From positions 1 to 55,449 of IMG/VR virus record IMGVR_UViG_3300042564_001643: DNA of 55,449 bases. One strand, 5' to 3'. The stretch's first letter is position 1; each line of letters begins with the position of its first letter. The translations under genes and the position numbers were made by a program. Shown in pieces: positions 29,459-50,507 of the stretch. The notes beneath the pieces are model-generated. The model worked only from the letters and a program-made list of their open reading frames with translations. It made no database searches and was not told the origin of the DNA. The DNA comes from a virus (Duplodnaviria; Caudoviricetes).

Positions 29459-30496
29459 TTATATTACTCTGGATCCTGCATTATATTGATAATAGCGTGG
29501 ATCAATTGGATAACTCTTAAACATGTTGTAGTACTTACCATATTGTGCAACACGGTTAGCCCACCATAATTTTTTCATCTCTTCAAAGTTTGGAGTATTA
29601 ACCAAGCCTAATGCTTGATTTCTAGCTACTTTACTTCTCTGCATAATAAACTGCAATTTTTGAGATACGTCCTCACCATTCATAAGTAAGTTCTCAAGAA
29701 GTCTTTCTTTGATAGCATACTCATAGTAGTCATTAAGTAATGGATGATTTGGTACAAGTAATTCTCCGTCATCTCCTTCAAGCTGACCTTGATAGTTCAA
29801 GTATACTTTGCCTGTTTGGAAAGTAGTAAATAAGAATCCGTTCTTAAGCCAACCTTCATTAGGTGTATTCCAATACAAGTTAGGACACTCACAATCAATG
29901 TTCTGACTTGTCTTCATACGTAATGGAAGTAGTACTCTATATGATCTTGTTTGACCTGTAGGCATAATCTGAATCAACTCATACTTTTCACCTTTACAGT
30001 TCATGAATACACGCGGGCGTATACATGTATCACCATAAGGATTATTAGGATCATAAGCATCTGGAATATAGTTTCCAGGTAATGTATTAGTAGCACATGC
30101 TGCAGTATGATTACACGGATGTGAATTACATACAGAACAGTTAACAGTTGGTGCAGCACATTGGTCTACTGTAGATGGTACTTCTCTATAAGGTACCTCT
30201 TGGATATTTGTTCCACCCAAATTATAACCCGCTTGTAATTGGTATTCACCACATATCATTGCGTAGTTAAATGTATAGAAGTCATCAGGAAGTTTTACTC
30301 TCCCGTGTTCTACTTCTAGTATGACCTCTTTAGTCTGATTGATTCTTAAACCTAAATCATAGTTAAGCTTAGTAGCAATCTTAATTAAAGTTTGAGGCTC
30401 CAACATGTTTTCCAAAGCAAATGTTTGGAAGTCAACCATCACATCTTCTAAGAGTTCATCAAATGTGCGGTACTTGAGTGTATAATTAAAATCCAT
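29459..30496 (-). CDS. Tail ring/tubular protein (P22 gp4-like) with Cys/His-rich insert
   Basis: Contains EVEHGRVKLPDDF and G.VYLNYQGQ...DGELLVP motifs. It lies immediately before the stabilisation protein. Confidence 0.65.
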   Translation of the reverse strand: MDFNYTLKYRTFDELLEDVMVDFQTFALENMLEPQTLIKIATKLNYDLGLRINQTKEVILEVEHGRVKLPDDFYTFNYAMICGEYQLQAGYNLGGTNIQEVPYREVPSTVDQCAAPTVNCSVCNSHPCNHTAACATNTLPGNYIPDAYDPNNPYGDTCIRPRVFMNCKGEKYELIQIMPTGQTRSYRVLLPLRMKTSQNIDCECPNLYWNTPNEGWLKNGFLFTTFQTGKVYLNYQGQLEGDDGELLVPNHPLLNDYYEYAIKERLLENLLMNGEDVSQKLQFIMQRSKVARNQALGLVNTPNFEEMKKLWWANRVAQYGKYYNMFKSYPIDPRYYQYNAGSRVI

Positions 30497-31167
30497 TATC
30501 TAAGTATGTTTTGGCTGTCATCAGCACCGTTAGTAGGAACTTGCATTGCAAGAGTTAACTCTTTTACTACAAACTGCTCAATTTCTGAATATAAATATTC
30601 TGGAAAAGGTAATCTTTGATCCTGTCTAATTCTACAATTATCATCTGTCTCACAGTGATAGGTAGATATATCAGCATCATACAATGCTTCCACTTTAATG
30701 GCATCCCATTGGTTATTAGGTAAATATAAATACCCGTCTAAATACCAAAAGTATTTTTGCTTGTTATATTTAAAGTTAACTGTTTTTGTAATAGATACAT
30801 AAGTACCTGGTTCAGTACGGTATAGTTCCATAGATCCATCTATAGAAGATACAGAACGGATAAGTGGTCCAAAGGAACCATCTAATATTTTAGGTAGTCT
30901 ATCTTTTGTTCTCTTAATAGTACATCCTGAATAGATACCTGCACAACCTGCTTGAACTTTATCTACATCTATTAATTCTACATATGGTAGATCAGTCCAG
31001 ATAGAACTCATCTTCATAAGCTTATACTGGTTATCTTCTCTTCTTAAAAGAGTCTCACCATACTTAATAATAGAATAGTAAATATTTCTATCAGTTAAGA
31101 AAGCATCTTCCTTAACAGCTTTAAGTACTGTTCTTACTCTAGTTATTGTTTCTCCAATTGTTGTCAT
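30496..31167 (-). CDS. Tail ring/adaptor protein
   Basis: 223 aa with a helical N-terminus and YFWYLDGYLYL and LPFPEYL motifs. Translationally coupled with both neighbours. Synteny supports the call. Confidence 0.6.
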   Translation of the reverse strand: MTTIGETITRVRTVLKAVKEDAFLTDRNIYYSIIKYGETLLRREDNQYKLMKMSSIWTDLPYVELIDVDKVQAGCAGIYSGCTIKRTKDRLPKILDGSFGPLIRSVSSIDGSMELYRTEPGTYVSITKTVNFKYNKQKYFWYLDGYLYLPNNQWDAIKVEALYDADISTYHCETDDNCRIRQDQRLPFPEYLYSEIEQFVVKELTLAMQVPTNGADDSQNILR

Positions 31168-31748
31168 AGATCAAACTCATTATAGTTTTCTAGCTTGGTA
31201 TCTAGCTTTTTCTTTTTCACATCTCTGATAGTAATTGCAGTGTATACCTTCCATAGTTTCCTATTTGAGTCTACTTGAATATACATATTCCAGTTTTCTG
31301 GATATGATTTTGCAACTGCTCTCTTAAAGTTTCTGCAGGCACTAAAGCTCCAACATTCTCTGAAGGCATACTTATACTTACTTGCAAAACTTGTATAAAA
31401 TATCTTAGCCAACTTACCATCAGTTTCCCAATTAGTATTGCTAACTGTAACTCCATACTTGTTAGACTTAGCATAATCAACATTAGCACTCTTTGCTCTT
31501 TGACATGTCCCAACAAATATAGCACCTAACCCTTCAGGGAACTGTACACCATCTCTGTTCTCTATGACAGTTTCCCAAAAAGCCTCATTAAAACTCTTAA
31601 TGATTGCACTAATTTGGACATTAGTTAGATCTTTATGCTTTGGAAATTTTCTTCTGAAACTGTTATAAAATTTCCTGCTTCCGATACTGTGTGCTTTCTG
31701 TCTGAATCTTGGTGCATTTAAGTCAGGCTTTCTAAACTCTTTACTCAT
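31164..31748 (-). CDS. IHF/HU-like DNA-binding protein (crAss tail-module type)
   Basis: Basic protein. Two helices followed by GVQFPEGLGAIFV match the HU/IHF beta-arm signature. crAss-like phages carry an IHF homologue at this position. Confidence 0.65.
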   Translation of the reverse strand: MSKEFRKPDLNAPRFRQKAHSIGSRKFYNSFRRKFPKHKDLTNVQISAIIKSFNEAFWETVIENRDGVQFPEGLGAIFVGTCQRAKSANVDYAKSNKYGVTVSNTNWETDGKLAKIFYTSFASKYKYAFRECWSFSACRNFKRAVAKSYPENWNMYIQVDSNRKLWKVYTAITIRDVKKKKLDTKLENYNEFDL

Positions 31749-31750
31749 CT

Positions 31751-31795
31751 TATACTATTTAATATACAAAAAATTATCCACTCTAGCAAATATAC
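31751..31795 (-). promoter_or_regulatory. Putative promoter (TTTG-N20-TATATTAA)
   Basis: Lies after a terminator and before the IHF-like gene. Also contains an exact TATATTTG (TAnnTTTG). Confidence 0.55.
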
Positions 31796-31797
31796 TA

Positions 31798-31834
31798 AAA
31801 ATAGAAAACCCCAGGTACTCTTACCCGGGGTCTT
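31798..31834 (-). terminator. Rho-independent terminator
   Basis: Minus strand reads ACCCCGGGTA-AGAG-TACCTGGGGT followed by TTTCTATTTT. Confidence 0.8.
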
Positions 31835-31844
31835 CCTGTTGTTA

Positions 31845-31869
31845 GCCACAGAAACCAACAAACTGCGAC
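31845..31869 (-). other. RNA hairpin GUCGCAG-UUUGUUGGUUU-CUGUGGC (candidate regulatory RNA element)
   Basis: A 7-bp stem with two G-U pairs that forms only on the minus strand. It lies just upstream of the terminator, and its loop is complementary to the AAACCAACAA leaders. Confidence 0.45.
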
Positions 31870-31874
31870 ATGTC

Positions 31875-32765
31875 TTAAACCTCTTCTACCATAATTTGGG
31901 CTTTTAGTAATCTACCAACAGAACCTGCTTTACTTTTAAACTTAAGTGAAACAGTCTCATTTGGTGCCAATGTAACTACTTGGTAAAAAGAAACATTTGT
32001 AGGAATACGCGTATTATAAAATCTAAACTCAACTGGGTTCACACTTGGTGTAGTAACTACTGTTTCTGTTGTAAGAAAAGTAACTTGCTCTCCAGTAGTA
32101 GGTCCATCAAATAAAGAACCTGCTATATCCTGAGCACCTAAAGTTTCCCATAAAATTGTATCAATAGAACTTACTGTTTTAATAATAGCACCATCAACCC
32201 AATTTGAAAAATCAGCTGTATTAGTCAAAGCTACTGGCACATTTGTATTATACGATACAAATACTTTAAATGTCTTACTAGTTGATGCTGTGTTTGTATA
32301 AGTCAGTGTATTATATCCAGTTGGAAAAAAGTAATTATTAGGACCAGGACTTGGAGCTCCTACTACGATATCAATATCACTTTCAACTTGTTGATTAAAA
32401 AATACTTTAGCTGCTACAGGTGTCAAAGATATTGTGTATGTAGTAGTATCACCAACTGTTGTTGATGTTACATCAATACCTGTACCCTCATTTATTATAG
32501 TAGTAGATCCTGTATTTTCACAGAAGTAACCAATTATATCTTCTAAAGCAAGATTAAGTGGAGTGTTAGTTAATACAACATCATCTAATCCACACTGTAA
32601 ATTAGGTCCTGTATAAACCACACACGCTGCATCAAATACTTCAGAGCATGATTGTTTAGTGGGACAATCAACCGGTGTTGGACATGCAGGAGGAGTAGTT
32701 AGATAACTACCGTTACATCCACATGTTAATTTGTTGCATCCGCAACTTGTACAATTTGTTGCCAT
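31875..32765 (-). CDS. Putative tail fibre/spike subunit, Cys-rich N-terminus (paralogue of 32775-34430)
   Basis: CVVYTGPNLQC motif and a Thr/Val-rich beta C-terminal domain clearly similar to the neighbouring gene. Confidence 0.5.
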   Translation of the reverse strand: MATNCTSCGCNKLTCGCNGSYLTTPPACPTPVDCPTKQSCSEVFDAACVVYTGPNLQCGLDDVVLTNTPLNLALEDIIGYFCENTGSTTIINEGTGIDVTSTTVGDTTTYTISLTPVAAKVFFNQQVESDIDIVVGAPSPGPNNYFFPTGYNTLTYTNTASTSKTFKVFVSYNTNVPVALTNTADFSNWVDGAIIKTVSSIDTILWETLGAQDIAGSLFDGPTTGEQVTFLTTETVVTTPSVNPVEFRFYNTRIPTNVSFYQVVTLAPNETVSLKFKSKAGSVGRLLKAQIMVEEV

Positions 32766-32774
32766 AATCTTTTA

Positions 32775-34430
32775 TTAAATTTCTTGTACGTAAATCTGAG
32801 CTTGAACAACATAAGCTTCATAACCTGCTATTAAAGTTTTAAACTTTAGACTTACTGATTCATTGTTATTTAATGTCAAACGTTTGAAGCATGAGACATT
32901 TTTTGCTGCACTAAATATTTTAAATCTAGCCTCAACATCTAATACTCCAGGTACTGTTTGTACTTTTTCAGTTGTAGTAATATCAACTATATCAGTAATA
33001 GTAGGTCCGTCAAATAAAGATACACCATGTTGTGTGCTTGCTGCAGAACTTTCCCATTCTATTGTATCAATACCTAATGCAGTTGTTATAATTCCACCAG
33101 CAATCAAATTAGAAATACTTACTGGAGTTGCCATTATAGTTGGGATTTCAGTATCAAAACTCACATTAACAATATAGTCTTTAGTTACTCCTGTTGTATT
33201 TGTATAAGTTAAACTATTGTAACCTAAAGGAAAGTGGAAGACTGCTGTATTTGGAACAGGATCATCATCAACATTTATTGAACCAATAGCTTCATTATAT
33301 GATACTTCTTTTGGTCTTGAGACTGTATACGTTGTATCATTACCTACAGTTACTGGTGTAACTACTATATCATCTGCTCCTACTACAATTGCTTCTTTAC
33401 CTGCAATTGTATATGTAGTAACTCCGGCAACAGGTCCAGTCGGTGTTACAGTAATATTGTCTCCTGCAGTTACCACACTTGACAAAGCATCAATTGTGTA
33501 ATCTGTAACTTCATCACTACCTACTAAAGAAACTGCAGGTGTGACTGTTACATTGTTACCCGCTGTAACTGTTACTAAAGCTTTACCAGCATTTCTAAGG
33601 TCACATAAAGCAATCCATAAATTATTAACTGCATTAGCTAATGTTGTTGGACTTGCTACATAAGCAGGATATGCTACTTGCATTTGAGTTCCTGGAGATG
33701 TATACTGTACTGCTAATGCATCATCTGTTCCTAAAATACATTGTGCTAGTATAGAAGATGCAAGATCAGTAACAGACCCAAACGTTGCTTTGTATGGACA
33801 CCATTCTTCATTAATGAATCTACTAAGTACAACATCAATATCCTGTGTTGATCCTGCAGCTAATGTAGGAATGATAGTTCCAATCTCACACTGAAGAATA
33901 AATGAAGGAATAATAAATGAAGGTACTGGAGTTACTTCTAATGTAGCTACTCTTGTATTCAATGAAGATATACCAGAGTTAATAATATTTATTTCTACAA
34001 AGATGTTACAAATCTGTGTAGCTGCTTGTTGTACATAGTCTACTAATGTAACAGTGCCTCCACCAAAACATGGTGATGCTGTCATTAGATAACTTGATAC
34101 TTCTGGAGATCTTGTACTTACACTTGCAGAAGTTGTTGTAGCAACTGAAGCTGGTACATTTTCAACAGCACAAATTCTATCAATCAAGAATTGCAATAAC
34201 TCTTGATAGTTGTTTGGTCCACATGCTGCTAAATTAAAACATGTAAGGTCATAATTCTGTACATTCAGATAATCTAAAATTGTACAAAGTTCTGTTGCAA
34301 GCTTAAACGTAACATCAGAGATTGTATCACCTTTACAAAGATTAATACAAGGAATGTTAGGACCAGCCCATATCACACAGTTTGATGATACTGGACTACA
34401 TGGTGAGTTATCTAAATTTAAAGGCTTCAT
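32775..34430 (-). CDS. Putative tail fibre/spike protein with short beta repeats
   Basis: CVIWAGPNIPC motif, a short coiled coil (ISSLNTRVATLE), three AG(N/D)N(V/I)TVTP-like repeats and a C-terminal domain paralogous to 31875-32765. Confidence 0.55.
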   Translation of the reverse strand: MKPLNLDNSPCSPVSSNCVIWAGPNIPCINLCKGDTISDVTFKLATELCTILDYLNVQNYDLTCFNLAACGPNNYQELLQFLIDRICAVENVPASVATTTSASVSTRSPEVSSYLMTASPCFGGGTVTLVDYVQQAATQICNIFVEINIINSGISSLNTRVATLEVTPVPSFIIPSFILQCEIGTIIPTLAAGSTQDIDVVLSRFINEEWCPYKATFGSVTDLASSILAQCILGTDDALAVQYTSPGTQMQVAYPAYVASPTTLANAVNNLWIALCDLRNAGKALVTVTAGNNVTVTPAVSLVGSDEVTDYTIDALSSVVTAGDNITVTPTGPVAGVTTYTIAGKEAIVVGADDIVVTPVTVGNDTTYTVSRPKEVSYNEAIGSINVDDDPVPNTAVFHFPLGYNSLTYTNTTGVTKDYIVNVSFDTEIPTIMATPVSISNLIAGGIITTALGIDTIEWESSAASTQHGVSLFDGPTITDIVDITTTEKVQTVPGVLDVEARFKIFSAAKNVSCFKRLTLNNNESVSLKFKTLIAGYEAYVVQAQIYVQEI

Positions 34431-37400: not shown

Positions 37401-37733
37401 TGTATAGTTAGCGGGAATTATTTCTGTTAAAATACATTCTCCATCAATAAGTATATATCCTGGAGGGCAATCACCACAAGGCAACTGTTCTACACAGCTA
37501 CTACACTTATCATTCCAAAAGCTATACACTATGGTTACCCAGTTAATGGATACCAAAGGTGTTGGAAGAACCTCTAATGTAACACGACTGACCTCAAAAC
37601 ATTTTCCATATTGAAGTATATCTGATCCTGAATCAAATCTTATATAAGGACCTGGATAAGAAGGTGCTTCATTAGAATAAAACAAACTTCCTGTAGAACC
37701 AGGACATGGAGTATATTTGTAGTAATATGCCAT
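34476..37733 (-). CDS. Cys-rich repetitive structural/adhesin-like protein (1085 aa)
   Basis: Repeated YxLxxC...C(W/Y)xV...CxxC units, two CPxGY motifs flanking a beta-sandwich-like domain, and a location inside the structural module. Confidence 0.55.
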   Translation of the reverse strand: MAYYYKYTPCPGSTGSLFYSNEAPSYPGPYIRFDSGSDILQYGKCFEVSRVTLEVLPTPLVSINWVTIVYSFWNDKCSSCVEQLPCGDCPPGYILIDGECILTEIIPANYTGGLVPVVEGDANTAYTKFGLRLYPDISGLTLPLYGYGYADNPACVITIPYSVTDDNGAGVVVTPLLSSVKSKLWGCDNTIPTCQTGTTISNRGRLMTTGIWSPGYPDNVELSFEFCVNIDTTKQYLIGIAGDNKVKIYVDSVLHVFLDVDGVTPICAQAVTTPFTSWHVFPITLNAGNHIIKLSGLNLGSEASFGAEIYDIDLATFQSTLTTPASGAPNCGNVPADIDPYVIFSTKDYIGESIPDPTDPGVWTCPDGYTLDVCNGIPQCTKVIAIPATPCYNVYSLQPCCGGEPVIIYFVDDSLEEDGVYVYTSSLPYGDLVSPSCYTATSYSYTGVGVPPFPQGQISDFSLVEQGCGNGIEPYTSICDYLCLSCVCRRFLWTGTPAPGTYEITYIDCDNQVQTLDIPTDGITWTDKVCMKSVLNTCPNPSVCWTSETFGDCTLDTVTDTYNCNLCYELIDCAGIEDNIYTLNQQVGQYVDTQQVIQIQGSDTCWTVRETENDCSCAITVSVQFVFSTCETCLNPKGYLLTECTTGVTQYTTTDLSDYTTVIIKTDCGGCWTVTELDIIPPTSQPVSVIAGFVDCEICNSTFYELVDCIGVADPIFTTTDLSDYVDQIVELKYCPNTCWQVNVSTPQEVFGDVIVENSFGIRCSDCLTSILTPKCVTFTNTGNTISIVDYVDLNGSYGEGNRLILSGGETTTKDCYLFWELGNSVTATEYGTCVDGVCPPSTPLVYRSVRPGYNTGTCNPEYYETVQCAFSDVIYKNVLAQRYGIANCCPDDDVKWEVKQALLMLDILVDPDYTCSVGTCSCPTRCDCGFISLNVVYNTCPSATRYLLASCYDPSITEVVSIPNTYNVLGKVIVINNVCYSVVSATNDITTVYWTPGTIYETCSEAGCVIPLPCVRYNCQLSARLSTVIFYLDCDGVEASLVVPGAKVIVVPPICGIAGQTSSTFYAVSDGPVNFTFTETDFLC

Positions 37734-37951
37734 TATTTTTTAACGTATCTATCACGTCCCCATACTTTGTTCTGAGGAGCAATAACAGGTGAATTTAATT
37801 TTGTTGGTGCAATTTGTGATGGTCTTGGTGTTCCCTTTATTCTTGCCTCATAAGCATTCAAACAAGTTGAACAACATCCTTTACCATCTGAAGCAGTTCT
37901 TTTTTGACATCCGCAAGAAAGACGTGCATTACAATTTGAACAAGTTGCCAT
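37733..37951 (-). CDS. Small Cys-rich (metal-binding-like) protein
   Basis: 72 aa with CxxC...CGC...CCxxC. Coupled to the next gene, with an AAAAACCAA leader upstream. Confidence 0.6.
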   Translation of the reverse strand: MATCSNCNARLSCGCQKRTASDGKGCCSTCLNAYEARIKGTPRPSQIAPTKLNSPVIAPQNKVWGRDRYVKK

Positions 37952-37972
37952 AAGTCCTTGGTTTTTATATGG

Positions 37973-43641: not shown

Positions 43642-44658
43642 TTAAGAGTTCCAAAGTTTTTCAATCTTGTTATTCAAATCCTTTAGAATATCCTCATTAA
43701 GTGGATTCTTTAAGTACTCAATAACATCAGATGTATTTCTTCCCATCATAGTACTTGACTGGTGATGATAAATATGTCCATCTGCCTTATTAACAATATA
43801 CTTAAAAAATATGGAATCTTTAACAATTGCTTTGATTTTTAATGTTTCCATATCTAAATTAGCAGCATCTAAGAAGCTTTGAGCAGCTCTTTCTCTGTTA
43901 CCTTCAGTACCCTCACCGTTGATGTGTCTATCCATATTATCATAGATAACATCATTAGGTGTATATTTTTTATATTGTACACTAGCTGTATCTACTGCCT
44001 TAGCAATGTAGAATAACTTAGTGCTGTTTTTATCAAACAATTTTTGTAGCTCAGAAAGAGCTTTGTTTTTAAGTTTTTTGTATTCAGTCTTAGCACCTGC
44101 TGTTTCTTGTGCTTTATCTAAATAAAACTTAGGTGGAACTGCTTTTGATCTTGCTTCATCATAGCTACGTGCTACTAATGAAAAACCTCCAGCTTCAATT
44201 GCATATAACTTGATTCTATCAAACGGATCATTATGATCTAAGAATGTAGGCTCATTAGCACAAGCAATTGTAATCTTATTCCAGAAATCTGAGTTATCTG
44301 GTCTAAGTAATTTTACATCATTCCAGAATGTAGCACTATCAATGTCTAATACATTGGCAGCCAATTCTCTTTCTAATTCTGCAACTGCAACACGGATCTC
44401 TTTGATCTTAGCAGCTTTTTCTTCTGGATCTTTAATAAGTCTGATATCTGGTGCAAACTCATTTAATCCTGTGATGTATTGGATCACTCCATTTTTTTCT
44501 AAACAAGCTAATTGTTCAGAGTGAATTACTCCATCAAATAATGATAATCCATAATTCTCTAAGCCCATGTTAGATACTGAATTATCAAAGTAAGGTTTAA
44601 TAGAAACATTAGTCTTTTTTGTGTCTCTAGTTTCTACCATTGTGAATGTACTTTCCAT
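43642..44658 (-). CDS. Conserved capsid-module protein downstream of MCP
   Basis: 338 aa immediately after the MCP, as in the conserved crAss-like capsid block. AAACCAACAA leader upstream. Confidence 0.55.
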   Translation of the reverse strand: MESTFTMVETRDTKKTNVSIKPYFDNSVSNMGLENYGLSLFDGVIHSEQLACLEKNGVIQYITGLNEFAPDIRLIKDPEEKAAKIKEIRVAVAELERELAANVLDIDSATFWNDVKLLRPDNSDFWNKITIACANEPTFLDHNDPFDRIKLYAIEAGGFSLVARSYDEARSKAVPPKFYLDKAQETAGAKTEYKKLKNKALSELQKLFDKNSTKLFYIAKAVDTASVQYKKYTPNDVIYDNMDRHINGEGTEGNRERAAQSFLDAANLDMETLKIKAIVKDSIFFKYIVNKADGHIYHHQSSTMMGRNTSDVIEYLKNPLNEDILKDLNNKIEKLWNS

Positions 44659-44689
44659 TTTGTTGTTGGTTTTTTATTATTGGTTTTTA

Positions 44690-44738: not shown

Positions 44739-46355
44739 TTAGAATGATCCACCAGTGATTGGATTTCTCATAACAATTTTCAAGACTTTAGTTGGATCTT
44801 TAACCCAAATAGCTGGCATTGTTTGAGACATCATTACACGGTAACCGTTGAATTGTCCTGAAGACTGGAACCCTTGAGTACGTCCCATATAATCCATTGT
44901 ACCATTTTGATACCACCATTTCAATTGATTATCCCAAGATAATTTCAACAAGTAAATGTTGTCATTAGTGTTATCTGTGATATCAAAGATAATGAATGAA
45001 TAAGAAGATAATGGGAAACCATCAATGATTGGGTTCTCAATATCATTTGTATGAACGTTGTCAAATGCTGGATTCAATACAAACTTAACGTTAGCCAAGA
45101 AAGGAATAACATAAGATGTATAAGCAAATCCAAAATTCAAGTCCATACCTTTACCAGTGATAGCACCGATATCAGCAGCCTGAATCAATAAACCTGAAGA
45201 GATAGCCTCACGTTTAATTGCCTCATTAACCATACGCATACCACCCATACCAGTTTGAACTACTAGAGAACGTTTTGGATCTGGACCTTGGAACTCAACT
45301 TTACCATTGAAGAAGTTGTAGATCTCTCCACGGAATAAATCCAATGTAAAGTTATTCTTGTTGTAGATACGTTTGAAAGAGTTATCCAACTGTTTCCAAA
45401 GACCCACTGACAATCTGATATCATCTGGACCATCTTGTTTAACACGTCCACCTTGTCCCCACATCAAGTAAGTCTCAATGTCAGATGCAATTTTGCTCAA
45501 GTGAGCAGCTTCCATGTTAGTTAAGAATGTACGTGACAAATCTCCGTTATCAAAAGCTTTCTTCACAGAATCTTTACCCATAACTTTTACCATGTCCTCT
45601 AAAGAGTTCACAGATGGATCAATGTTTTTATCGTATGTTCTCCAGATCTCAGTTACTGGAACTGTTCCGTCTGCATTCATTCCACCTTTAATCATCAAGT
45701 CAGCACGAGATGAGATAGAATAATGTACGTGAGCCTCAGCACCACCTACGTAGTTGTAGAACTCACGGAATCCTGCATTTGTAATGATGTCAGAGAAACG
45801 CTCTCCATACTCACCACGTGCAGAACCTTTACGGAAGATTTTTGTACCGTTAGCCAAGTACTTGTTATCCAAGTATTTGTAGTTGTCATTGTTTACCAAT
45901 TGAACAGTATAGATGAAACCATCACCAATAGGTAAGATATCATCTTGTGTAACGTACATCTCAACACCGTTGTACTTGTCATAAGTCAAGATATCACCGT
46001 GTCCAAACTCACGTTTGTTCAACTTGATTTTAAATGTTTGACCATCTACTCCTTTGAAGTCGTTAGCTGGTTCAATGTCTTCAACAATGTATGGAAGGTC
46101 AATAGAGACCGGAGTCTGCCATTTGTACTCTCCACGAGCATTGTCAACCATGATTACATTCTTTCCACCGAAAGATGACATCTGATAAAGAGGCATTTCT
46201 ACCTTTTGAGCCATAGCCCAAAGGTCCACCGGACCTAAGTCCATTGGTTCTGCATCCTTCAGCATGTTTTGTAAGTGATATGAATCCACGTGTGATGTTG
46301 CATTGTATGCAGTATCACGCAGGAATATACCATTGTTTAAAACTGGAGTTGCCAT
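44739..46355 (-). CDS. Major capsid protein (HK97 fold, crAss-like)
   Basis: 538 aa after portal and scaffold. IETYLMWGQG...VGLWKQL and TGMGGM motifs. Followed by a strong terminator, and its codon usage looks shifted toward C-ending codons. Confidence 0.85.
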   Translation of the reverse strand: MATPVLNNGIFLRDTAYNATSHVDSYHLQNMLKDAEPMDLGPVDLWAMAQKVEMPLYQMSSFGGKNVIMVDNARGEYKWQTPVSIDLPYIVEDIEPANDFKGVDGQTFKIKLNKREFGHGDILTYDKYNGVEMYVTQDDILPIGDGFIYTVQLVNNDNYKYLDNKYLANGTKIFRKGSARGEYGERFSDIITNAGFREFYNYVGGAEAHVHYSISSRADLMIKGGMNADGTVPVTEIWRTYDKNIDPSVNSLEDMVKVMGKDSVKKAFDNGDLSRTFLTNMEAAHLSKIASDIETYLMWGQGGRVKQDGPDDIRLSVGLWKQLDNSFKRIYNKNNFTLDLFRGEIYNFFNGKVEFQGPDPKRSLVVQTGMGGMRMVNEAIKREAISSGLLIQAADIGAITGKGMDLNFGFAYTSYVIPFLANVKFVLNPAFDNVHTNDIENPIIDGFPLSSYSFIIFDITDNTNDNIYLLKLSWDNQLKWWYQNGTMDYMGRTQGFQSSGQFNGYRVMMSQTMPAIWVKDPTKVLKIVMRNPITGGSF

Positions 46356-46388: not shown

Positions 46389-47651
46389 TTAAAATCTTCT
46401 AAAAATATTTCCTTGATTTCTGGAAATAGTTTTTTGTTGTGTTTTCTTTTGTGTGTATTCTTCTTCTTGAGGAGTAGAAGATGTAATCTTTCTTTGTTCC
46501 TCAGTCTTAAGTTGTCTTACTGCTTTTTCAGTAGCTACTTTACCACCTTGCTCTTTGATCTTACCTTTGTATCCATCAGGATCTGCAAGTAACCAAAGTG
46601 CTTCAGCAATAAGATCATGTCTTGGTTCTACAAACTGATACTTTTCTAACAAGTGTCCAAGTAAGTTTGTAGGTTTACCAGAAATTGAAGGGTAGTTAGG
46701 TTGAACTAATCCTGAGTAAAGCATCCCTTGAACTTTCTTATCAAGTTTTACTCCTCCGATTTCTCCACCCACAAGTGTGTTATATACGTTATCCATATAT
46801 ACCTTAGCTTGTTTTTCTTGCTTTTCTTTTCTTGCTTCTTGCTCAGCTAGTTGTCTTGCAACAATTTCTTCTTGCATTCTATCTAACTTAGGTTTGAACT
46901 GATTTGCTTTAGCTTCTAACTTTCCTAGATCTTTCCAGTCAGTAATTTCATCTTCAATCTCTTCAGAATTACCATCTCCGAATCCTGTAGCATACAAGTA
47001 TTGTCTAACAATTTCTTCTTGGTCATACTCATTAGTAGGATCAAGTTGAATCATTTCTTCTACATGTGCTAGAGTTCTGAATAATCCTTTAAGATCTTGT
47101 CCTCCGTCAGCTACATATTTTGCAGCAATCTGAAGCTCTTCAGGTAAAGCATTAAAGAATTCTTTTGGAACTGAACTTCTTACTTTAGCTTCTCTTTCTT
47201 GGAAGTTAGCTTCAAACAATTCACGGAAGTCTTTTGCTGTATACTCTTCTAATGGTTTGTCATCATCAAAAGGCATAAGTGTTCCTTCCTCAATCATCTT
47301 AGCAGCTAAATCAGCTAAGCCAGATTTGTCAACTTTAGGTCTACCACCTTTAGTTCCCGCCTCTTCTTCTTGAGTAATCAGTTGATCAAGTTCTGCAATA
47401 GTCTCTTCAACTTCTAATTTTTGCTCCGGTGTGGTTGGTGTCTTACCATCCTCCGGTTTGTCAATGAACGATAAATCTACATTGCCAGTATTTGTAAATA
47501 CTGTCTTTGTCTTTTCTTCTTCTTTCTTTTCAGAATCTGGTAGCATAATGCTCTCAGCTCCTGGCATTCCAAAGATTTCATCCAAATTTACATCTACCTC
47601 AGATACAGTTGTTGCATTGAGGTTCTGCGCACTTTCATGAGTGTCTGCCAT
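46389..47651 (-). CDS. Putative scaffold protein
   Basis: Acidic disordered N-terminus, helical body and basic C-terminal tip. Lies between portal and MCP. Confidence 0.65.
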   Translation of the reverse strand: MADTHESAQNLNATTVSEVDVNLDEIFGMPGAESIMLPDSEKKEEEKTKTVFTNTGNVDLSFIDKPEDGKTPTTPEQKLEVEETIAELDQLITQEEEAGTKGGRPKVDKSGLADLAAKMIEEGTLMPFDDDKPLEEYTAKDFRELFEANFQEREAKVRSSVPKEFFNALPEELQIAAKYVADGGQDLKGLFRTLAHVEEMIQLDPTNEYDQEEIVRQYLYATGFGDGNSEEIEDEITDWKDLGKLEAKANQFKPKLDRMQEEIVARQLAEQEARKEKQEKQAKVYMDNVYNTLVGGEIGGVKLDKKVQGMLYSGLVQPNYPSISGKPTNLLGHLLEKYQFVEPRHDLIAEALWLLADPDGYKGKIKEQGGKVATEKAVRQLKTEEQRKITSSTPQEEEYTQKKTQQKTISRNQGNIFRRF

Positions 47652-47674
47652 TGTTGTTGGTTTTTTGTTTGTTA

Positions 47675-47735
47675 TTAATTCAATATAAGCATTTTTGACA
47701 TAATAAACTTCTAAAATTTAAAATTCAGAAGTCTT
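47675..47735 (-). promoter_or_regulatory. Putative promoter for scaffold-MCP with palindromic site
   Basis: TAAATTT-TAG-AAGTTTA (47704-47720) lies upstream of TATATTGA. Confidence 0.5.
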
Positions 47736-47756: not shown

Positions 47757-50507
47757 CTAGTTCTTCTTATTTTTGCTGTCTGGCTTGTCAAATCTATTTT
47801 TGTTCTCTCTAGCTACTTGTAACTGTTTATCAGCTATTTCTTTTTGAGCTTGAATCTTCTCTCTTTCAATCTGATTTTTGTTATTAGCTATTCTGTCACG
47901 GTTCCCTTCTTTCATTCTTTCAAGATTAGATTGATCTTGATACATCTCTGTCTCTCTTATCTCTTTCATAGAATCTAAGTAATCAGACTGCATATTTGCA
48001 TTAAGATCTGAACCTGCTCCATATCCAGCTGCACGAATCTCAGCAACAAGTAAATCACGTTGTCTGTTTTTCTCAGCTTCCATTGCATCATAGTCTCTTT
48101 TAAGTCTAGCTTCTTCTGCTTGAGCTTGTAATTGTTGCTCTTGCATTTGTTGCTGTTGTTGCATCTCTTGCTGTTTGATGTTATTGTTCTTCTCTTCAGA
48201 AGTTTTAAGCACCTGATTAAGTTCAGAGATTGAGTCTGATTGTACAACTTTACCTAAGTCATATATAGTAGCACCAGTAGTATTGTTTTGTAAAGCCATA
48301 GACTTTAACTGTTCAAGTATTGCTCTGTGATTAGCTGTTGTTGAAGCAAAGATATTTAAGTCTCTCATCATCAGATCAGTACCATTCATCTCAAAGTTAA
48401 CTTTCTCATCAGCCGTGGTCATGTACTGCAGTCTTAAAGAAGGTTTAGTAGAATGATAGTACTGTGCTAGATCTGTACGCATTTGATGAACACGTGGCAT
48501 CAAGTAATCACAGTGCTGAATAAAGAATACTTCTGTCTGTGCGTATGAAGCTGAGACAGCCTGCTCTACTCCTGTAGCAGTTTGCTGACTAATTTGTTGC
48601 CCCATACGCTGAGGATTCACACCAATAACTTCATATGCTTGCTGCTTGAAGTAATTAGCTAATTGAATCCTTGACATTAGTCTACTTGTTTGTTCAAGAT
48701 CTAACTTCTGGAAATGTTGAAAGTTTAATGCATTCTCTGTATTTGATATAGATGTATCAAGAGGTAACATCTGGAAGTTCTTCATAGCAACGTATGCTTT
48801 AGCCAGATTGTTCTTACCCCAGTCTTCTCCCATGGAGTGACGAGGTAAGGCATTCTGGTCTAGGAGTATAACTGTGCCGAGTTCATCCACTAAAATATCT
48901 GCAATTTGATTGTTTACAATATTGTATCCAATCTGATATGGCTTCATTAAATCAATTAATGCAGTTGACTTAGTATTTCTATCTGAGAATACAGCACCTT
49001 CTACAGGAAGTTTACATCCGTAGATACTGTTATCTCCTTTGAATTGAAATCTAAGTGGGCCTATTTTGTTCTTATCAATACCAATATAAATTGGAGTAAA
49101 TCCACCAGGGTTATTCATACCCCAGAATGAAGGTACGTTTGGTCCAATCTTTACACCACCCCATACTTCATTAATCCAAATCCAGTCAATGTGCTCACCA
49201 AAAACTAAGTTATCTTTTGTTCTGTTTTTGAATAAGCGTGTATCATATAATGGTTTATCAATAACTGCATAGTCTTCTGTTACAATCTCATTAAGTACTT
49301 CACCATTTTCAGCTACTTTTGTTAAGTGACCTACTTTACGTTGTGACTTCCAATATGATGTAGATACTCTTAATAGATATGCAGTACCTGCTACATTATA
49401 ATCTTCACCTTCAGCTAAGATCTGAGATATAACATCTCCTCCCTCAAGAACTGACCCTGATACCATAGAGGTATATTGGCGGTATGCTAATGAAGGTAAG
49501 TTAGTATTCCATTCATGAGTTTTGGTTGCATCATAATATGAACCATCATTTTGTTGTCCACCAATATTATAACCTGCAGATCTGATAGGATAGATTGCTT
49601 CTAATGCCTCCAATTGATCTTCAGTCATCAAGTATCCATACTTATCAATAACGTCTGCTACAGTGAACATATCTGTTTTACCAACCCAGTTAGCTTGTGA
49701 TATGTATCTTGCATCTGGAGATTTGTGATAGAATGTAAGTACAGGATTCCATAATTCAACATCATAGTCATCCTCCATCATACGCATGTGCCAGAACTCG
49801 CGGTCAGTAATAAGCATATCACGGAAACCTCTTTCTTCTAACTCATCCATCTTGAATCTCTCAACATCTACTTTATGTTGGTGAGTAGCCCATTGTTCAA
49901 TCATTGATCTGTAGTCTTTCTTAAAGAACATCTCAATCTCTGGTAATGTCTTAAGCTTTTCCGGATTTAATTCTTGTTGTGCTTCTTCTGATTCAGGATC
50001 TAATCCTTGTTGTAACATTGCTGCTACAATCTTCATCTTAGCTTCACCTAATAAAACCTCTTCAACTGCTACACGTTTTTGCTCTAACATCTCATTATAA
50101 GAGATCTCATCTACTCCAGTATATGTAAGCTTAGTTGATCTCTTAGCAAATTCAGCTACTAGAACATTAATAACATTAGGGATAATAGGGTAGAACTTAA
50201 GCTCAAGTGCAGAATAGTCTTCTTTAGTTAAGGTCTCAACAATATCTCTGTACTCATTGTCTTCTTCAACAATGTAATCAGATTTATCAATGATACCTTT
50301 TGCAAGCTTGTAGTTCTTCATGAATCTACGTGCATTTCTACGGATCTGTTTTAATCCATTCCATTCCAACCAGTCAAGATTCCAGGCAGCCCATTCTTGA
50401 TCTTTATCTTTTTTAGGGATAAACTGTAATGGTTGGGTAATACTACCCATTCTATTATGCTGAACTTTTGCTCCCTTCTTTAACTGTAGTGCGTTATATA
50501 CTTGCAT
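47757..50507 (-). CDS. Portal protein
   Basis: 916 aa directly after TerL. YPIIPNVINVL, WINEVWGG and LIDLMKPYQIGYNIV motifs and a Q-rich C-terminal barrel helix. Confidence 0.88.
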   Translation of the reverse strand: MQVYNALQLKKGAKVQHNRMGSITQPLQFIPKKDKDQEWAAWNLDWLEWNGLKQIRRNARRFMKNYKLAKGIIDKSDYIVEEDNEYRDIVETLTKEDYSALELKFYPIIPNVINVLVAEFAKRSTKLTYTGVDEISYNEMLEQKRVAVEEVLLGEAKMKIVAAMLQQGLDPESEEAQQELNPEKLKTLPEIEMFFKKDYRSMIEQWATHQHKVDVERFKMDELEERGFRDMLITDREFWHMRMMEDDYDVELWNPVLTFYHKSPDARYISQANWVGKTDMFTVADVIDKYGYLMTEDQLEALEAIYPIRSAGYNIGGQQNDGSYYDATKTHEWNTNLPSLAYRQYTSMVSGSVLEGGDVISQILAEGEDYNVAGTAYLLRVSTSYWKSQRKVGHLTKVAENGEVLNEIVTEDYAVIDKPLYDTRLFKNRTKDNLVFGEHIDWIWINEVWGGVKIGPNVPSFWGMNNPGGFTPIYIGIDKNKIGPLRFQFKGDNSIYGCKLPVEGAVFSDRNTKSTALIDLMKPYQIGYNIVNNQIADILVDELGTVILLDQNALPRHSMGEDWGKNNLAKAYVAMKNFQMLPLDTSISNTENALNFQHFQKLDLEQTSRLMSRIQLANYFKQQAYEVIGVNPQRMGQQISQQTATGVEQAVSASYAQTEVFFIQHCDYLMPRVHQMRTDLAQYYHSTKPSLRLQYMTTADEKVNFEMNGTDLMMRDLNIFASTTANHRAILEQLKSMALQNNTTGATIYDLGKVVQSDSISELNQVLKTSEEKNNNIKQQEMQQQQQMQEQQLQAQAEEARLKRDYDAMEAEKNRQRDLLVAEIRAAGYGAGSDLNANMQSDYLDSMKEIRETEMYQDQSNLERMKEGNRDRIANNKNQIEREKIQAQKEIADKQLQVARENKNRFDKPDSKNKKN

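Follow-up and report, generated by a model that had tools for sequence, protein, structure and literature searches.

The 3' UTR of a tail-module gene for a 296-aa protein in an uncultured crAss-like phage from lake water carries a small stem-loop that is, on comparison of related genomes, a real and strand-specific RNA structure. Its loop is essentially invariant in the loci read, and the same comparison indicates that it is under selection for its sequence. The loop is complementary to a motif that precedes the start codons of head genes, and the hairpin is tentatively regarded as a 3'-UTR riboregulator that would pair with these leaders, a reading that we hold to be possible rather than probable.

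The window, which is the whole stretch of 55,449 nt of DNA that was analysed, encodes hallmark genes of crAss-like phages. Positions 29459-31167 match Pfam CrAss_Ring_2 (81.8 bits) and CrAss_Ring_1 (31.7 bits), and the PHROG matches in the window include portal, terminase and major head families. The nearest MCP of a deposited phage is only 28.8% identical, and the DNA of 31000-33000 was unmatched among deposited phages. The stretch is contained in 24 public runs, all of them DNA metagenomes (none RNA) from lakes, freshwater or seawater. Relatives have been binned into MAGs of many phyla, the closest into Chitinophagaceae and Bacteroidetes bins. MAG contigs with an MCP at 67-70% identity are too short to contain the hairpin, and the MCP representatives P0002 and P0003 had no relatives in the viral collection. 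The neighbouring gene has 294 and 195 relatives in two viral-collection searches. A search for tRNA and tmRNA genes found none. Phages of this group abound in aquatic metagenomes, those from lakes included, and next to nothing has been learned of how they time and balance their late genes in hosts that do not rely on Shine-Dalgarno sequences. A literature search on the motif strings and on crAss-like freshwater phages, covering articles exclusive of their supplementary files, returned no description of the hairpin.

The hairpin and its surroundings consist of the following features:

31875 to 32765, minus strand: gene for the 296-aa protein, from the list of open reading frames, with its stop codon at 31875-31877 and the hairpin in its 3' UTR
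31845 to 31869, minus strand: stem-loop, with 5' arm GUCGCAG (31863-31869), loop UUUGUUGGUUU (31852-31862) and 3' arm CUGUGGC (31845-31851)
31836 to 31844, minus strand: CA-rich 3' flank UAACAACAG, which could pair with the loop in alternative folds (centroid structures)
31797 to 31836, minus strand: intrinsic terminator (GC-rich hairpin plus U run), common to the 296-aa gene and the stem-loop

The fold GUCGCAG/CUGUGGC, which the initial annotation had placed between the stop codon of the 296-aa gene and its terminator, was found with the sequence described, on the minus strand. The stem has 7 bp, two of which are wobble pairs (U31868-G31846 and G31866-U31848), and the hairpin is the MFE structure of the 39-nt stretch, at -8.3 kcal/mol. 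Its stability is that of shuffled sequences (z -0.49, with equal folding in 49/200 shuffles), and the centroid of the hairpin region is a competing hairpin, not the MFE hairpin. When the flanks were shuffled, a helix of at least 6 bp enclosed the loop in 129/1000 shuffles; that a stem can form therefore says little by itself, and it is covariation that carries the case. In the window alone it is the complementarity of the loop, not the fold, that goes beyond chance, and the fold is validated only through comparison with relatives.

In 55 sequences of group A, base pairing is kept in 97.7% of 385 stem cells; with slid partner columns the figure is 30-58%, and none of 500 shuffles reached the observed value. 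Across groups A-D, the outer five pairs are paired in 148/148 cells (slid controls, 22-71%) of a 30-sequence alignment whose rows came from hairpins that folding had already picked out, a choice biased towards pairing. This alignment contains 24 double-sided changes, with six pair types at one position. The covariation of the stem that the initial annotation had named as a check is present across relatives, with compensatory changes in the outer pairs of groups A-D. The contrary prospect it had raised, of a hairpin and loop that are not conserved in relatives, does not hold, with 50 distinct hairpins that have a constant loop core on 37 different stems. The stem has 6 to 10 bp and the invariant loop 8 to 12 nt, and most relatives have a CAAC-type flank 3' of the hairpin. 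One additional stem, GUCAUG/CAUGAC, comes from a MAG-binned relative.

G-U pairs occupy 82 of the 351 stem cells (23%), which places the structure in the coding-strand RNA. Read on the opposite strand they would become A-C mismatches, and the DNA is thus no palindrome. Folding of the plus strand of the hairpin stretch gives no hairpin, and the strand specificity originally proposed is borne out by both observations.

The hairpin and terminator occur as one unit per genome in the relatives checked, in which the flanking proteins are only 43-70% identical. A covariance model gave one strong match per genome in three near-complete group-A genomes and the window (34.7-57.6 bits; 54.6 bits for the single match in the window), and the next best match scored 19.3 bits. 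On groups B-D this group-A model recovers only the loop (11.8 bits), and the hairpins there were found by synteny. Seven loci of the synteny set had motif matches in coding sequence. Two of them, L238 and L246, later yielded the true hairpin; for the other five (L239, L243, L263, L277 and L282) the coding-sequence match is what was read, and L254 is too short. A search of five MAGs with the covariance model returned one true match (L330) and two chance matches.

The 296-aa gene itself is variable, its relatives being 48-61% identical with differing C-termini, and it had no match among PHROG or Pfam families. The order of stop codon, hairpin and terminator is the same in relatives, as expected of an RNA derived from a 3' UTR. 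The hairpin lies from a few to about 16 nt upstream of the intrinsic terminator, and the pair moves as a unit whatever gene follows. The terminator is kept in relatives with a differing sequence, and the 111-nt region that contains it in the window folds at -38.3 kcal/mol (z -3.97, with 0/200 shuffles folding as well). The stem-loop at 31845-31869 is not itself an intrinsic terminator, since it is directly followed by UAACAACAGG with no U run. In the sequences read by eye, no conserved promoter-like box was seen directly upstream of the hairpin. No Rfam family reached its gathering score anywhere in the window. The Prevotella-2 RNA (RF03043) gave a weak full-length alignment over 31743-31858 (32 bits, E 0.007) that covers mainly the terminator and a promoter-like AT-rich block and starts inside the loop; membership in this family was rejected, as its gathering score is 72.1 bits.

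GUUGGU is present in 50/50 loops, and UGUUGGU in all except a few U-to-A variant loops. The loop is composed of U and G only, with the core UUGUUGGU, and this core is identical in groups B-D on stems that are unrelated in sequence. A metagenome scan that fixed the stem but put no constraint on the loop gave 50 matches with phage context, and every one of them had UUGUUGGUU. The motif lies upstream of the 194-aa homologue, identified by protein homology, in 85 of 86 loci, the single miss being a truncated contig. It is very improbable that the hairpin is a passive 3'-end element, such as an exonuclease block, an RNase site or a termination aid, or a protein site at the DNA level, with a loop whose conservation reflects recombination or hitch-hiking where an exchangeable tail-gene cassette ends. 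Its location at the border between a hypervariable gene and conserved genes and its ordinary folding energy would agree with such a role, but an invariant loop amid 37 stems and unrelated terminators would be unexpected, and both the frequent G-U pairs and the unfolded plus strand argue against a DNA site.

Several other readings of the hairpin region were rejected. A competing helix between GUUGGUU and the 3' flank GGCUAAC is paired in 70.9% of cells, a value identical to that of shuffles, and so is not conserved. An H-type pseudoknot with the 3' flank would, by its geometry, leave no connecting loop. A mini-ORF of nine codons from the ATG at 31870 keeps its start and stop in a few close relatives, most relatives lacking the ATG, and its few changes are non-synonymous. 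A stimulator of stop-codon read-through or recoding does not fit a distance to the stop codon and a frame that are unconserved, or an upstream gene that differs. A CRISPR-repeat mimic (RNA anti-CRISPR) was considered as well and seems less likely, since the arm order and loop length are not known to resemble those of CRISPR repeats.

An invariant loop on freely changing stems is also what would be expected of an RNA element whose loop is read by a phage or host protein. Under this explanation, the main alternative although it appears rather unlikely, the complementarity to leaders would be a coincidence of composition (U/G-rich against A/C-rich). The element could be a boxB/nut-like site that modulates read-through of the downstream terminator, or an operator or stability element for a phage protein. 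The hairpin is constantly upstream of the terminator and travels with it, and the arrangement of a hairpin before a terminator resembles cro-nutR-tR1 of phage lambda. The lambda nutR/boxB element is a small hairpin with a sequence-specific pentaloop located between a gene and the next terminator. Unlike nutR/boxB, the hairpin described here has a loop of 9-19 nt and one site per genome, with no boxA or N-like protein identified; of the features of a boxB/nut-type site, only the position upstream of a terminator was found. Family scans matched none of the neighbouring proteins to a known RNA-binding family, so a candidate binder is lacking, and a single element per genome is at odds with the presence of more than one terminator, for example after the MCP gene.

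The motif to which the loop is complementary is found in the following leaders:

47654 to 47663, minus strand: leader motif AAACCAACAA, 2 nt upstream of the start codon (ATG) in the 420-aa gene (46389-47651)
44663 to 44672, minus strand: leader motif AAACCAACAA, 4 nt upstream of the start codon (ATG) in the 338-aa post-MCP gene (43642-44658)
44677 to 44686, minus strand: imperfect second copy of the motif, AAACCAATAA, in the leader of the 338-aa post-MCP gene
37958 to 37966, minus strand: partial motif AAAAACCAA before the 72-aa gene (37733-37951), a 7-nt complement

Lying between portal and MCP, the 420-aa gene is in the scaffold position. The window contains three exact copies of the 10-mer AAACCAACAA against 0.22 expected, a count that 0/100 shuffles reach; the copy at 31852-31861 on the plus strand is antisense to the loop. 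If one mismatch is tolerated, the 10-mer is not enriched in the window (10 against 7.68 expected, with 25/100 shuffles reaching 10). The leader copies of the 420-aa and 338-aa genes have a 16-mer in common, and tandem AACCAAC copies precede the post-MCP gene in relatives. The 10-nt pairing that had been claimed for the scaffold and post-MCP leaders thus corresponds to exact copies next to both start codons, and the partial pairing claimed before the 72-aa gene to AAAAACCAA only; the genes also lack Shine-Dalgarno sequences, as had been stated. The predicted duplex of the loop with the 72-aa gene leader in the window has only -8.2 kcal/mol, and the small genes of G002 and G003 that are homologous to the 72-aa gene have the full AAAACCAACAAA in their leaders.

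The complement of the loop, AAACCAAC, is among the most enriched words directly upstream of start codons. In three near-complete genomes, the numbers of genes with AACCAAC at -22 to -1 are 5, 6 and 3, where 0.27, 0.19 and 0.20 would be expected, and other motif-bearing leaders occur elsewhere in the genome. AACCAAC sits anywhere between 0 and 16 nt before the ATG, a variable spacing more in keeping with the binding site of a regulator than with a ribosome contact at a locked position. Motif-bearing leaders are predicted to be unstructured, and the scaffold motif is single-stranded in the predicted fold of its leader.

A Watson-Crick complement to the loop of at least 8 nt is present in the scaffold leader in 44/46 distinct leader sets (30/31 in group A and 14/15 in groups B-D), compared to 0/48 for the similarly A/C-rich MCP leader (0/31 and 0/17, respectively). 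The post-MCP leader has such a complement in 24/29 group-A leader sets and in 0/15 of those in groups B-D. The leader motif of the initial annotation therefore stands for the scaffold leader throughout the clade, but for the post-MCP leader only in the window's sub-group, and it has decayed in group B. An invariant loop together with this scaffold complement is the conserved seed that a 3'-UTR sRNA would be expected to have. Duplex energies with the loop were compared for the 39 orthologue clusters found in 6 or more of 8 genomes; the mean is best for the scaffold-position gene (-11.24 kcal/mol), and the post-MCP gene is second. By genome, the scaffold duplex ranks 2, 1, 3 and 2 among its group-A competitors, first in the group-C genome, and 9 and 5 in the two of group B. 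Judged by its best conserved target, the observed loop is fourth of 165 orderings of 8 U and 3 G, and the top five orderings are register shifts of the GUUGG motif. A protein-binding element leaves unexplained both the exact complementarity of the loop to an enriched leader motif and the presence of a complement in 44/46 scaffold leader sets against 0/48 for MCP. The tandem AACCAAC before the post-MCP gene would suit a multimeric binder of single-stranded RNA, independent of the hairpin.

The covariation of loop and leader, also proposed in the initial annotation as a check, was not seen; no compensatory loop/leader change was found among the relatives. In the genome with the loop variant UUAGUUGGUUU (L003/L037 type), the leaders are still AAACCAACAA, and leaders are unchanged where loops are shortened or altered on the 3' side (L043, L068, L069, L093). 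Drift in group B has left AAAAACCAAA (8 nt) in the scaffold leader and AAAACCUUUU in the post-MCP leader. For G019, a complete genome of group B, the scaffold translation initiation region (TIR) is 9th of 101 at -8.4 kcal/mol and the post-MCP TIR is 31st, and AACCAAC is absent from the enriched TIR words. The loop of group B is unchanged despite this drift, indicating that something besides these leaders keeps it invariant. A loop that is constant where the leader motif has decayed is consistent with recognition by a protein.

Constancy of the loop across phage groups with differing leaders would also be explained by a target in the host, either a AAAACCAACAAA-like host RNA or a host RNA-guided or RNA-binding factor in defence or regulation for which the hairpin serves as a decoy. 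Phage-encoded sRNAs that act on host functions have been reported (10.1101/2024.10.31.621285; PMC13502914). A host target is nonetheless improbable. The MAG bins of relatives span many phyla and so point to no defined host, and the conserved complement in the phage's own scaffold leader would be unexplained.

The statistical support is modest: composition-matched shuffled loops equal the real loop on the top three TIRs in 4, 6, 8 and 13 per 300 trials in four genomes. Loop and leader are each conserved by descent, and many genomes therefore amount to roughly one coincidence. A helix of 10-11 bp inside a closed loop of 11 nt is impossible without strain or opening of the stem. A/C-rich unstructured leaders may be selected by themselves for efficient initiation without a Shine-Dalgarno sequence (PMC6847099).

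Pairing of the loop with the scaffold leader could also take place in cis, between the 5' leader and the 3'-terminal hairpin of a single late transcript, giving a circularised mRNA that would be more stable or better translated. The genes between 47651 and 31875 all share one strand, the hairpin and terminator end that block, a promoter-like block lies upstream of the scaffold gene, and it is the scaffold leader in particular that keeps the complement. However, a strong terminator follows the MCP gene, between the scaffold leader and the hairpin, so that the 16-kb read-through transcript would be a minority species. Motif-bearing leaders elsewhere in the genome likewise misfit a single 5'-3' pair, and circularisation of this kind is scarcely credible.

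The reading preferred here, though with less than even confidence, is that this widespread clade of uncultured aquatic crAss-like phages has a dedicated riboregulator whose loop acts on scaffold or head-gene leaders in trans or in cis. On the observed structure, strand, loop invariance and complementarity, we infer that the RNA would accumulate, that its loop would pair with these leaders, and that the effect would be repressive. The 3' UTR of the 296-aa late gene would encode an RNA module of about 75 nt, consisting of the stem-loop and the intrinsic terminator, that acts within the full mRNA or after processing to a 3' fragment. The stem would display the U/G-only loop as a single-stranded seed, and the loop would pair with the unstructured A/C-rich AAACCAAC(AA) located 0-16 nt upstream of the scaffold-position start codon. 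In the window's sub-group, further pairing may involve the post-MCP leader and a few small-gene leaders. Because these mRNAs lack Shine-Dalgarno sequences, the leader duplex would occlude the ribosome landing site. The expected outcome would be lowered translation of head-assembly genes, possibly with altered mRNA stability; the guiding of translation that the initial annotation had offered as an alternative found no support.

If the hairpin is such a riboregulator, it would couple expression of a tail gene to translation of head-assembly genes, and a phage-encoded RNA would control the phage's own morphogenesis genes within Bacteroidota-type translation that is free of Shine-Dalgarno sequences. 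Pairing with the scaffold leader would add a new case of a phage regulating itself through a 3'-UTR RNA, and the loop and leader would provide a natural seed/target pair with which translation could be engineered in Bacteroidota. Should the partner of the loop be a protein or a host RNA instead, the hairpin would still be a new conserved RNA family and a useful marker of the clade. Being single-copy and constant in its loop, the hairpin lends itself to clean tests.

There is a precedent in Bacteroides thetaiotaomicron, where sRNAs that anneal to TIRs without Shine-Dalgarno sequences repress mRNAs and are built of a seed and a terminator (PMC7366714, PMC11697453). The hairpin is like GibS and FopS of this species, which anneal to TIRs and repress, in the setting of a phylum without Shine-Dalgarno sequences and in the combination of a seed with a Rho-independent terminator (PMC7366714; PMC11697453). 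GibS and FopS have long linear 5' seeds and are independently transcribed or multicopy genes, whereas the hairpin has its seed in a loop and lies in a single-copy 3' UTR. GibS and FopS have no sequence relation to the hairpin.

CpxQ and SroC are base-pairing sRNAs derived from 3' UTRs. Another, CisR, originates from the prtV 3' UTR and is reported to inhibit the cep mRNA of phage CTXphi (PMC13250501). Like such sRNAs, the hairpin lies between a stop codon and the parental terminator and has a short conserved seed complementary to leaders, and the module is kept while the parental gene varies. It differs in that its seed is in a loop and not linear, in that it is a predicted RNA with no known chaperone, and in that the regulator and its putative targets are both genes of a lytic-type crAss-like phage.

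Regulators with seeds in loops include the RNAIII and Rsa RNAs of S. aureus, whose C-rich loops pair with Shine-Dalgarno regions, and antisense RNAs with kissing loops that contain a YUNR U-turn. The hairpin is like these regulators in having a stem-displayed, conserved loop complementary to the ribosome-loading region of several mRNAs, and unlike RNAIII and the Rsa RNAs in its A/C-rich target without a Shine-Dalgarno sequence and in consisting of a single hairpin. As read from its sequence, the loop includes UUUG and UUGG, both of which fit YUNR.

Comparison of related genomes points to the stem-loop at 31845-31869 (-), in the 3' UTR of the 296-aa gene, as a conserved phage RNA motif that is new and may act as a riboregulator. 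PHROG and Pfam matches identify the window as a fragment of a crAss-like phage, with a CheckV completeness of 46%. All long ORFs are on the - strand. Deposited phages are remote, the best match to the major head protein (MCP) having 28.8% identity. The matched genes are as follows:

50513-52717 (-), terminase, PHROG match
47757-50507 (-), portal, PHROG match
44739-46355 (-), MCP, PHROG match
29459-31167 (-), CrAss_Ring_2 and CrAss_Ring_1, tail ring proteins of 223 aa and 345 aa, Pfam match

Given the CrAss_Ring matches at 29459-31167, the hairpin sits at the border between a variable tail gene and a ring and giant-protein module. The genes lack Shine-Dalgarno (SD) sequences, as the initial annotation held; SD-like words are almost absent, preceding 2/36 window genes and 1/121, 2/130 and 10/124 genes of three near-complete relatives. 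The hairpin locus contains, in order of transcription:

31875-31877 (-), stop codon of the 296-aa gene
31863-31869 (-), 5' arm GUCGCAG
31852-31862 (-), loop UUUGUUGGUUU
31845-31851 (-), 3' arm CUGUGGC
between 3' arm and terminator (-), CA-rich flank
31797-31836 (-), strong terminator
after the terminator (-), promoter-like block, then the 194-aa gene

The arms, the loop, the two G-U pairs and the motif copies before two ATGs had been described accurately. The hairpin is the minimum free energy structure of the 39 nt originally delimited (-8.3 kcal/mol). Its stability is ordinary, since 49 of 200 shuffles fold equally well (z -0.49), and the centroid is a competing hairpin, not the proposed fold. 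With G-U at two of its seven pairs, the hairpin does not form when the + strand is folded. Past the terminator, the conserved promoter-like block (31749-31796, -) carries a perfect Bacteroidota-type -7 box, TAnnTTTG (TATATTTG, 31787-31794, -), followed by TTTTTTGTATATTAAATAG immediately upstream of the 194-aa gene's ATG. Relatives have a comparable TTTTGTATATTAAAG block ahead of the scaffold gene (about 47665-47720, -, in the window), and the block may be a phage late promoter or leader.

The element is conserved in the close relatives that form group A with the window. Relatives of the 296-aa protein (48-61% identity, differing C-termini) occur in seven viral loci, and the element lies directly 3' of the stop codon in all seven, one of which has an unrelated terminator sequence. 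A search by the downstream 194-aa gene, independent of the hairpin sequence, kept the best 80 of 294 relatives; with 16 from an initial search these gave 86 loci and 67 distinct upstream regions. The loop motif is found upstream of the 194-aa homologue in 85 of the 86, the sole miss being a contig truncated 94 nt ahead of it, and an extra gene displaces the hairpin 931 nt upstream in two loci. Across an alignment of 55 distinct sequences the stem is paired in 97.7% of 385 cells, the few unpaired cells falling mainly in two misaligned rows with differing stems. Slid controls are 30-58% paired, and 0/500 shuffles match the observed percentage or covariation score. Stem changes pass mostly through G-U intermediates (one pair: UG 25, UA 15, CG 13; another: GU 29, AU 24, GC 2). 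With a covariance model from this alignment, the window and three near-complete genomes each give a single strong match (34.7-57.6 bits); the best of the other matches scores 19.3 bits. The competing helix was rejected as a conserved structure, being paired in 70.9% of cells, the same as shuffles. Genome G002 (L105-L110) has at 57408 (+) a second small inverted repeat, ACAGA...UCUGU, enclosing the loop-like UUGUGUUGGUU, to which the covariance model gave no score.

An MCP search of 1.84 billion protein representatives led to one with 61% identity, whose relatives in viral collections form two sets by MCP identity to the window: group A (85-94%) and other groups (72-78%). Five long genomes of the latter set encode a 194-aa homologue, 43-46% identical, with an extra gene ahead of it. 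The group-A covariance model had no full-length match in these five, and its loop segment matches at the syntenic place, about 1.38 kb upstream, in 5/5. Those places hold a hairpin and terminator with unrelated stems (e.g. GUGGAG/CUCUAC, GUAGAG/CUCUGC) and a conserved loop core reading UUUUUUGUUGGUUUUAA. The 194-aa homologue of this set yielded 80 further loci (the best 80 of 195 relatives), where the hairpin-terminator unit recurs with the loop (G)UUUGUUGGUUUU and yet more stems, among them GUGGUGG/CUACUAC, GUGAUAG/CUGUCAC and GUAGUG/CAUUGC. Constrained folding around the loop anchor gave 55 distinct hairpins, of which 5 within coding sequence were dropped. Among the 50 retained there are 37 distinct stems, 6-10 bp long, and GUUGGU is in every loop. 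That the element is passive or acts at the DNA level is very improbable, since 37 stems enclosing a single loop, and G-U pairs in 82 of 351 stem cells (23%), are hard to square with it.

In a 30-sequence alignment across groups, pairing holds in 148/148 cells of the outer five pairs (slid controls 22-71%; shuffle mean 83%; 0/500 shuffles reach the observed value). Double-sided changes number 24, and as many as six pair types occur at a single position. Since the rows were drawn from hairpins previously found by folding, a bias toward pairing, and since shuffled flanks form a helix of at least 6 bp in 129/1000 trials, weight is placed on covariation and not on foldability. Covariation of the stem in relatives from groups A-D bears out the proposal that the hairpin is a real, conserved RNA structure. 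A further stem, GUCAUG/CAUGAC, encloses the unchanged loop in one MAG-binned relative. A metagenome scan with the commonest stem fixed and the loop free kept 80 loci from at least 120 matching stretches; 50 have phage context, all with the UUGUUGGUU loop, and the other 30 are unrelated chance matches. In groups B-D (L188-L192, L210-L289) the hairpin-terminator unit is separated from the 194-aa homologue by an additional gene (about 1.3 kb, ending ...YSPD*), and in the group-A genomes L046 and L048 by another insertion, about 0.9 kb long; the hairpin remains with the upstream variable gene. One 194-aa homologue (G020:C1:71575-72084, L192) has one in-frame TAA within the match.

Rfam 15 contains no family that matches at gathering score; a Prevotella-2 match (32 vs 72.1 bits) was rejected, as it covered mainly the terminator and promoter-like block. 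Literature on the motif strings and on crAss-like freshwater phages, supplementary files being outside its scope, held nothing relevant. The element is alike in kind to 3'-UTR-derived sRNAs and loop-seed regulators. Proven pairing, one test of sRNA membership, was not found, so the element is rated a candidate riboregulator.

The 10-mer AAACCAACAA occurs exactly three times in the window versus 0.22 expected (0/100 shuffles reach three): antisense to the loop, and ahead of the ATGs of the 420-aa scaffold-position gene (by 2 nt) and the 338-aa post-MCP gene (by 4 nt). With one mismatch allowed it is not enriched in the window. From the window alone, this complementarity, and nothing else, beats chance. 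The partial pairing claimed for the 72-aa gene leader amounts to a complement of just 7 nt. AACCAAC ranks with the most enriched 7-mers of the 22-nt stretches ahead of start codons in three near-complete group-A genomes, where it precedes 5, 6 and 3 genes versus 0.27, 0.19 and 0.20 expected: the scaffold-position and post-MCP genes, the small homologue of the window's 72-aa gene and, beyond the window, a few small genes. It lies 0-16 nt from the ATG, is single-stranded in predicted leader folds, and often has 2-3 tandem copies in the post-MCP leader. The tandem AACCAA(C/T)AA copies (2-3, spacing 9-16 nt; window 44663-44686, -; L025-L034, L128-L150) are crowded into the interval from the MCP terminator to the ATG, with no obvious promoter between.

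The preferred reading, a tentative one, is a 3'-UTR riboregulator whose loop would anneal to the scaffold-gene leader, and in group A to further leaders as well, the duplex blocking ribosome loading. Passages in PMC7366714 and PMC11697453 describe Bacteroides thetaiotaomicron sRNAs that anneal to SD-less initiation regions and repress them. In group-A genomes the predicted loop-leader duplexes (-11.4 to -12.4 kcal/mol) are at the top of the ranking of translation initiation regions (TIRs). Among 39 orthologous clusters present in at least six of eight genomes, the scaffold-position gene has the best mean duplex energy (-11.24 kcal/mol; one genome's scaffold ORF lies outside the cluster), ranking 2, 1, 3 and 2 in group A, 1 in a group-C genome, and 9 and 5 in two group-B genomes. 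The post-MCP gene is second, solely through group A. The observed loop is 4th among all 165 orderings of its letters, the top five being register shifts of one motif.

Leaders complementary to UUUGUUGGUUUU over a contiguous 8 nt or more, distinct leader sets
Scaffold-position leader: group A 30/31; groups B-D 14/15
Post-MCP leader: group A 24/29; groups B-D 0/15
MCP leader (control): group A 0/31; groups B-D 0/17

Most MAG-binned relatives with MCP identity of at least 76% retain AAAACCAAC ahead of the scaffold gene; at 67-70% the motif is lost from two of three relatives, and the third keeps AAAACCAA. The MAG contig L314 (MCP 81%), of a GC-richer lineage, has the scaffold leader AAACCAACCAAG and post-MCP leader AACCAAACCAACCAATG, and does not extend over the hairpin of that lineage.

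Covariation of loop and leader, a check suggested by the initial annotation, was not seen. No compensatory change was found among variant loci, and the UUAGUUGGUUU loop variant and four variants altered on the 3' side coexist with unchanged leaders in the same genomes. In group B the loop is kept and the leaders have drifted; in its complete genome G019, TIRs show no enrichment of AACCAAC, and that of the scaffold gene reaches only -8.4 kcal/mol. A protein-binding hairpin, such as a nut-like site acting on the adjacent terminator, would better account for loop invariance in group B; it leaves the specific leader complement unexplained and is possible, if unlikely. Composition-matched shuffled loops equal the real loop in 4-13 of 300 trials. 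Because loop and leader are both inherited, the many genomes amount to about one coincidence, whose probability, allowing for loop composition, is about 0.01-0.04. A/C-rich unstructured leaders may also be selected for SD-less initiation itself, as indicated in PMC6847099.

Of the remaining explanations, a variant with 5'-3' pairing in cis is scarcely probable at all. A host-directed RNA is improbable; relatives were binned into MAGs of many phyla, the closest being Chitinophagaceae and Bacteroidetes bins. The clade contigs from GTDB MAGs (L313-L329), which include whole genomes of 115-120 kb, come from bins labeled Micavibrio, Fluviibacter, Clostridium, Campylobacteraceae, Rickettsiales, Pseudomonadales, Patescibacteria, Chitinophagaceae and Bacteroidia. 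This mixture is probably binning contamination, making the labels unreliable for host assignment. Finally, CTTAAAA(C) is strongly enriched just upstream of G002 start codons (9 genes vs 0.38-0.46 expected) and may be a second leader or promoter motif of a different gene class.
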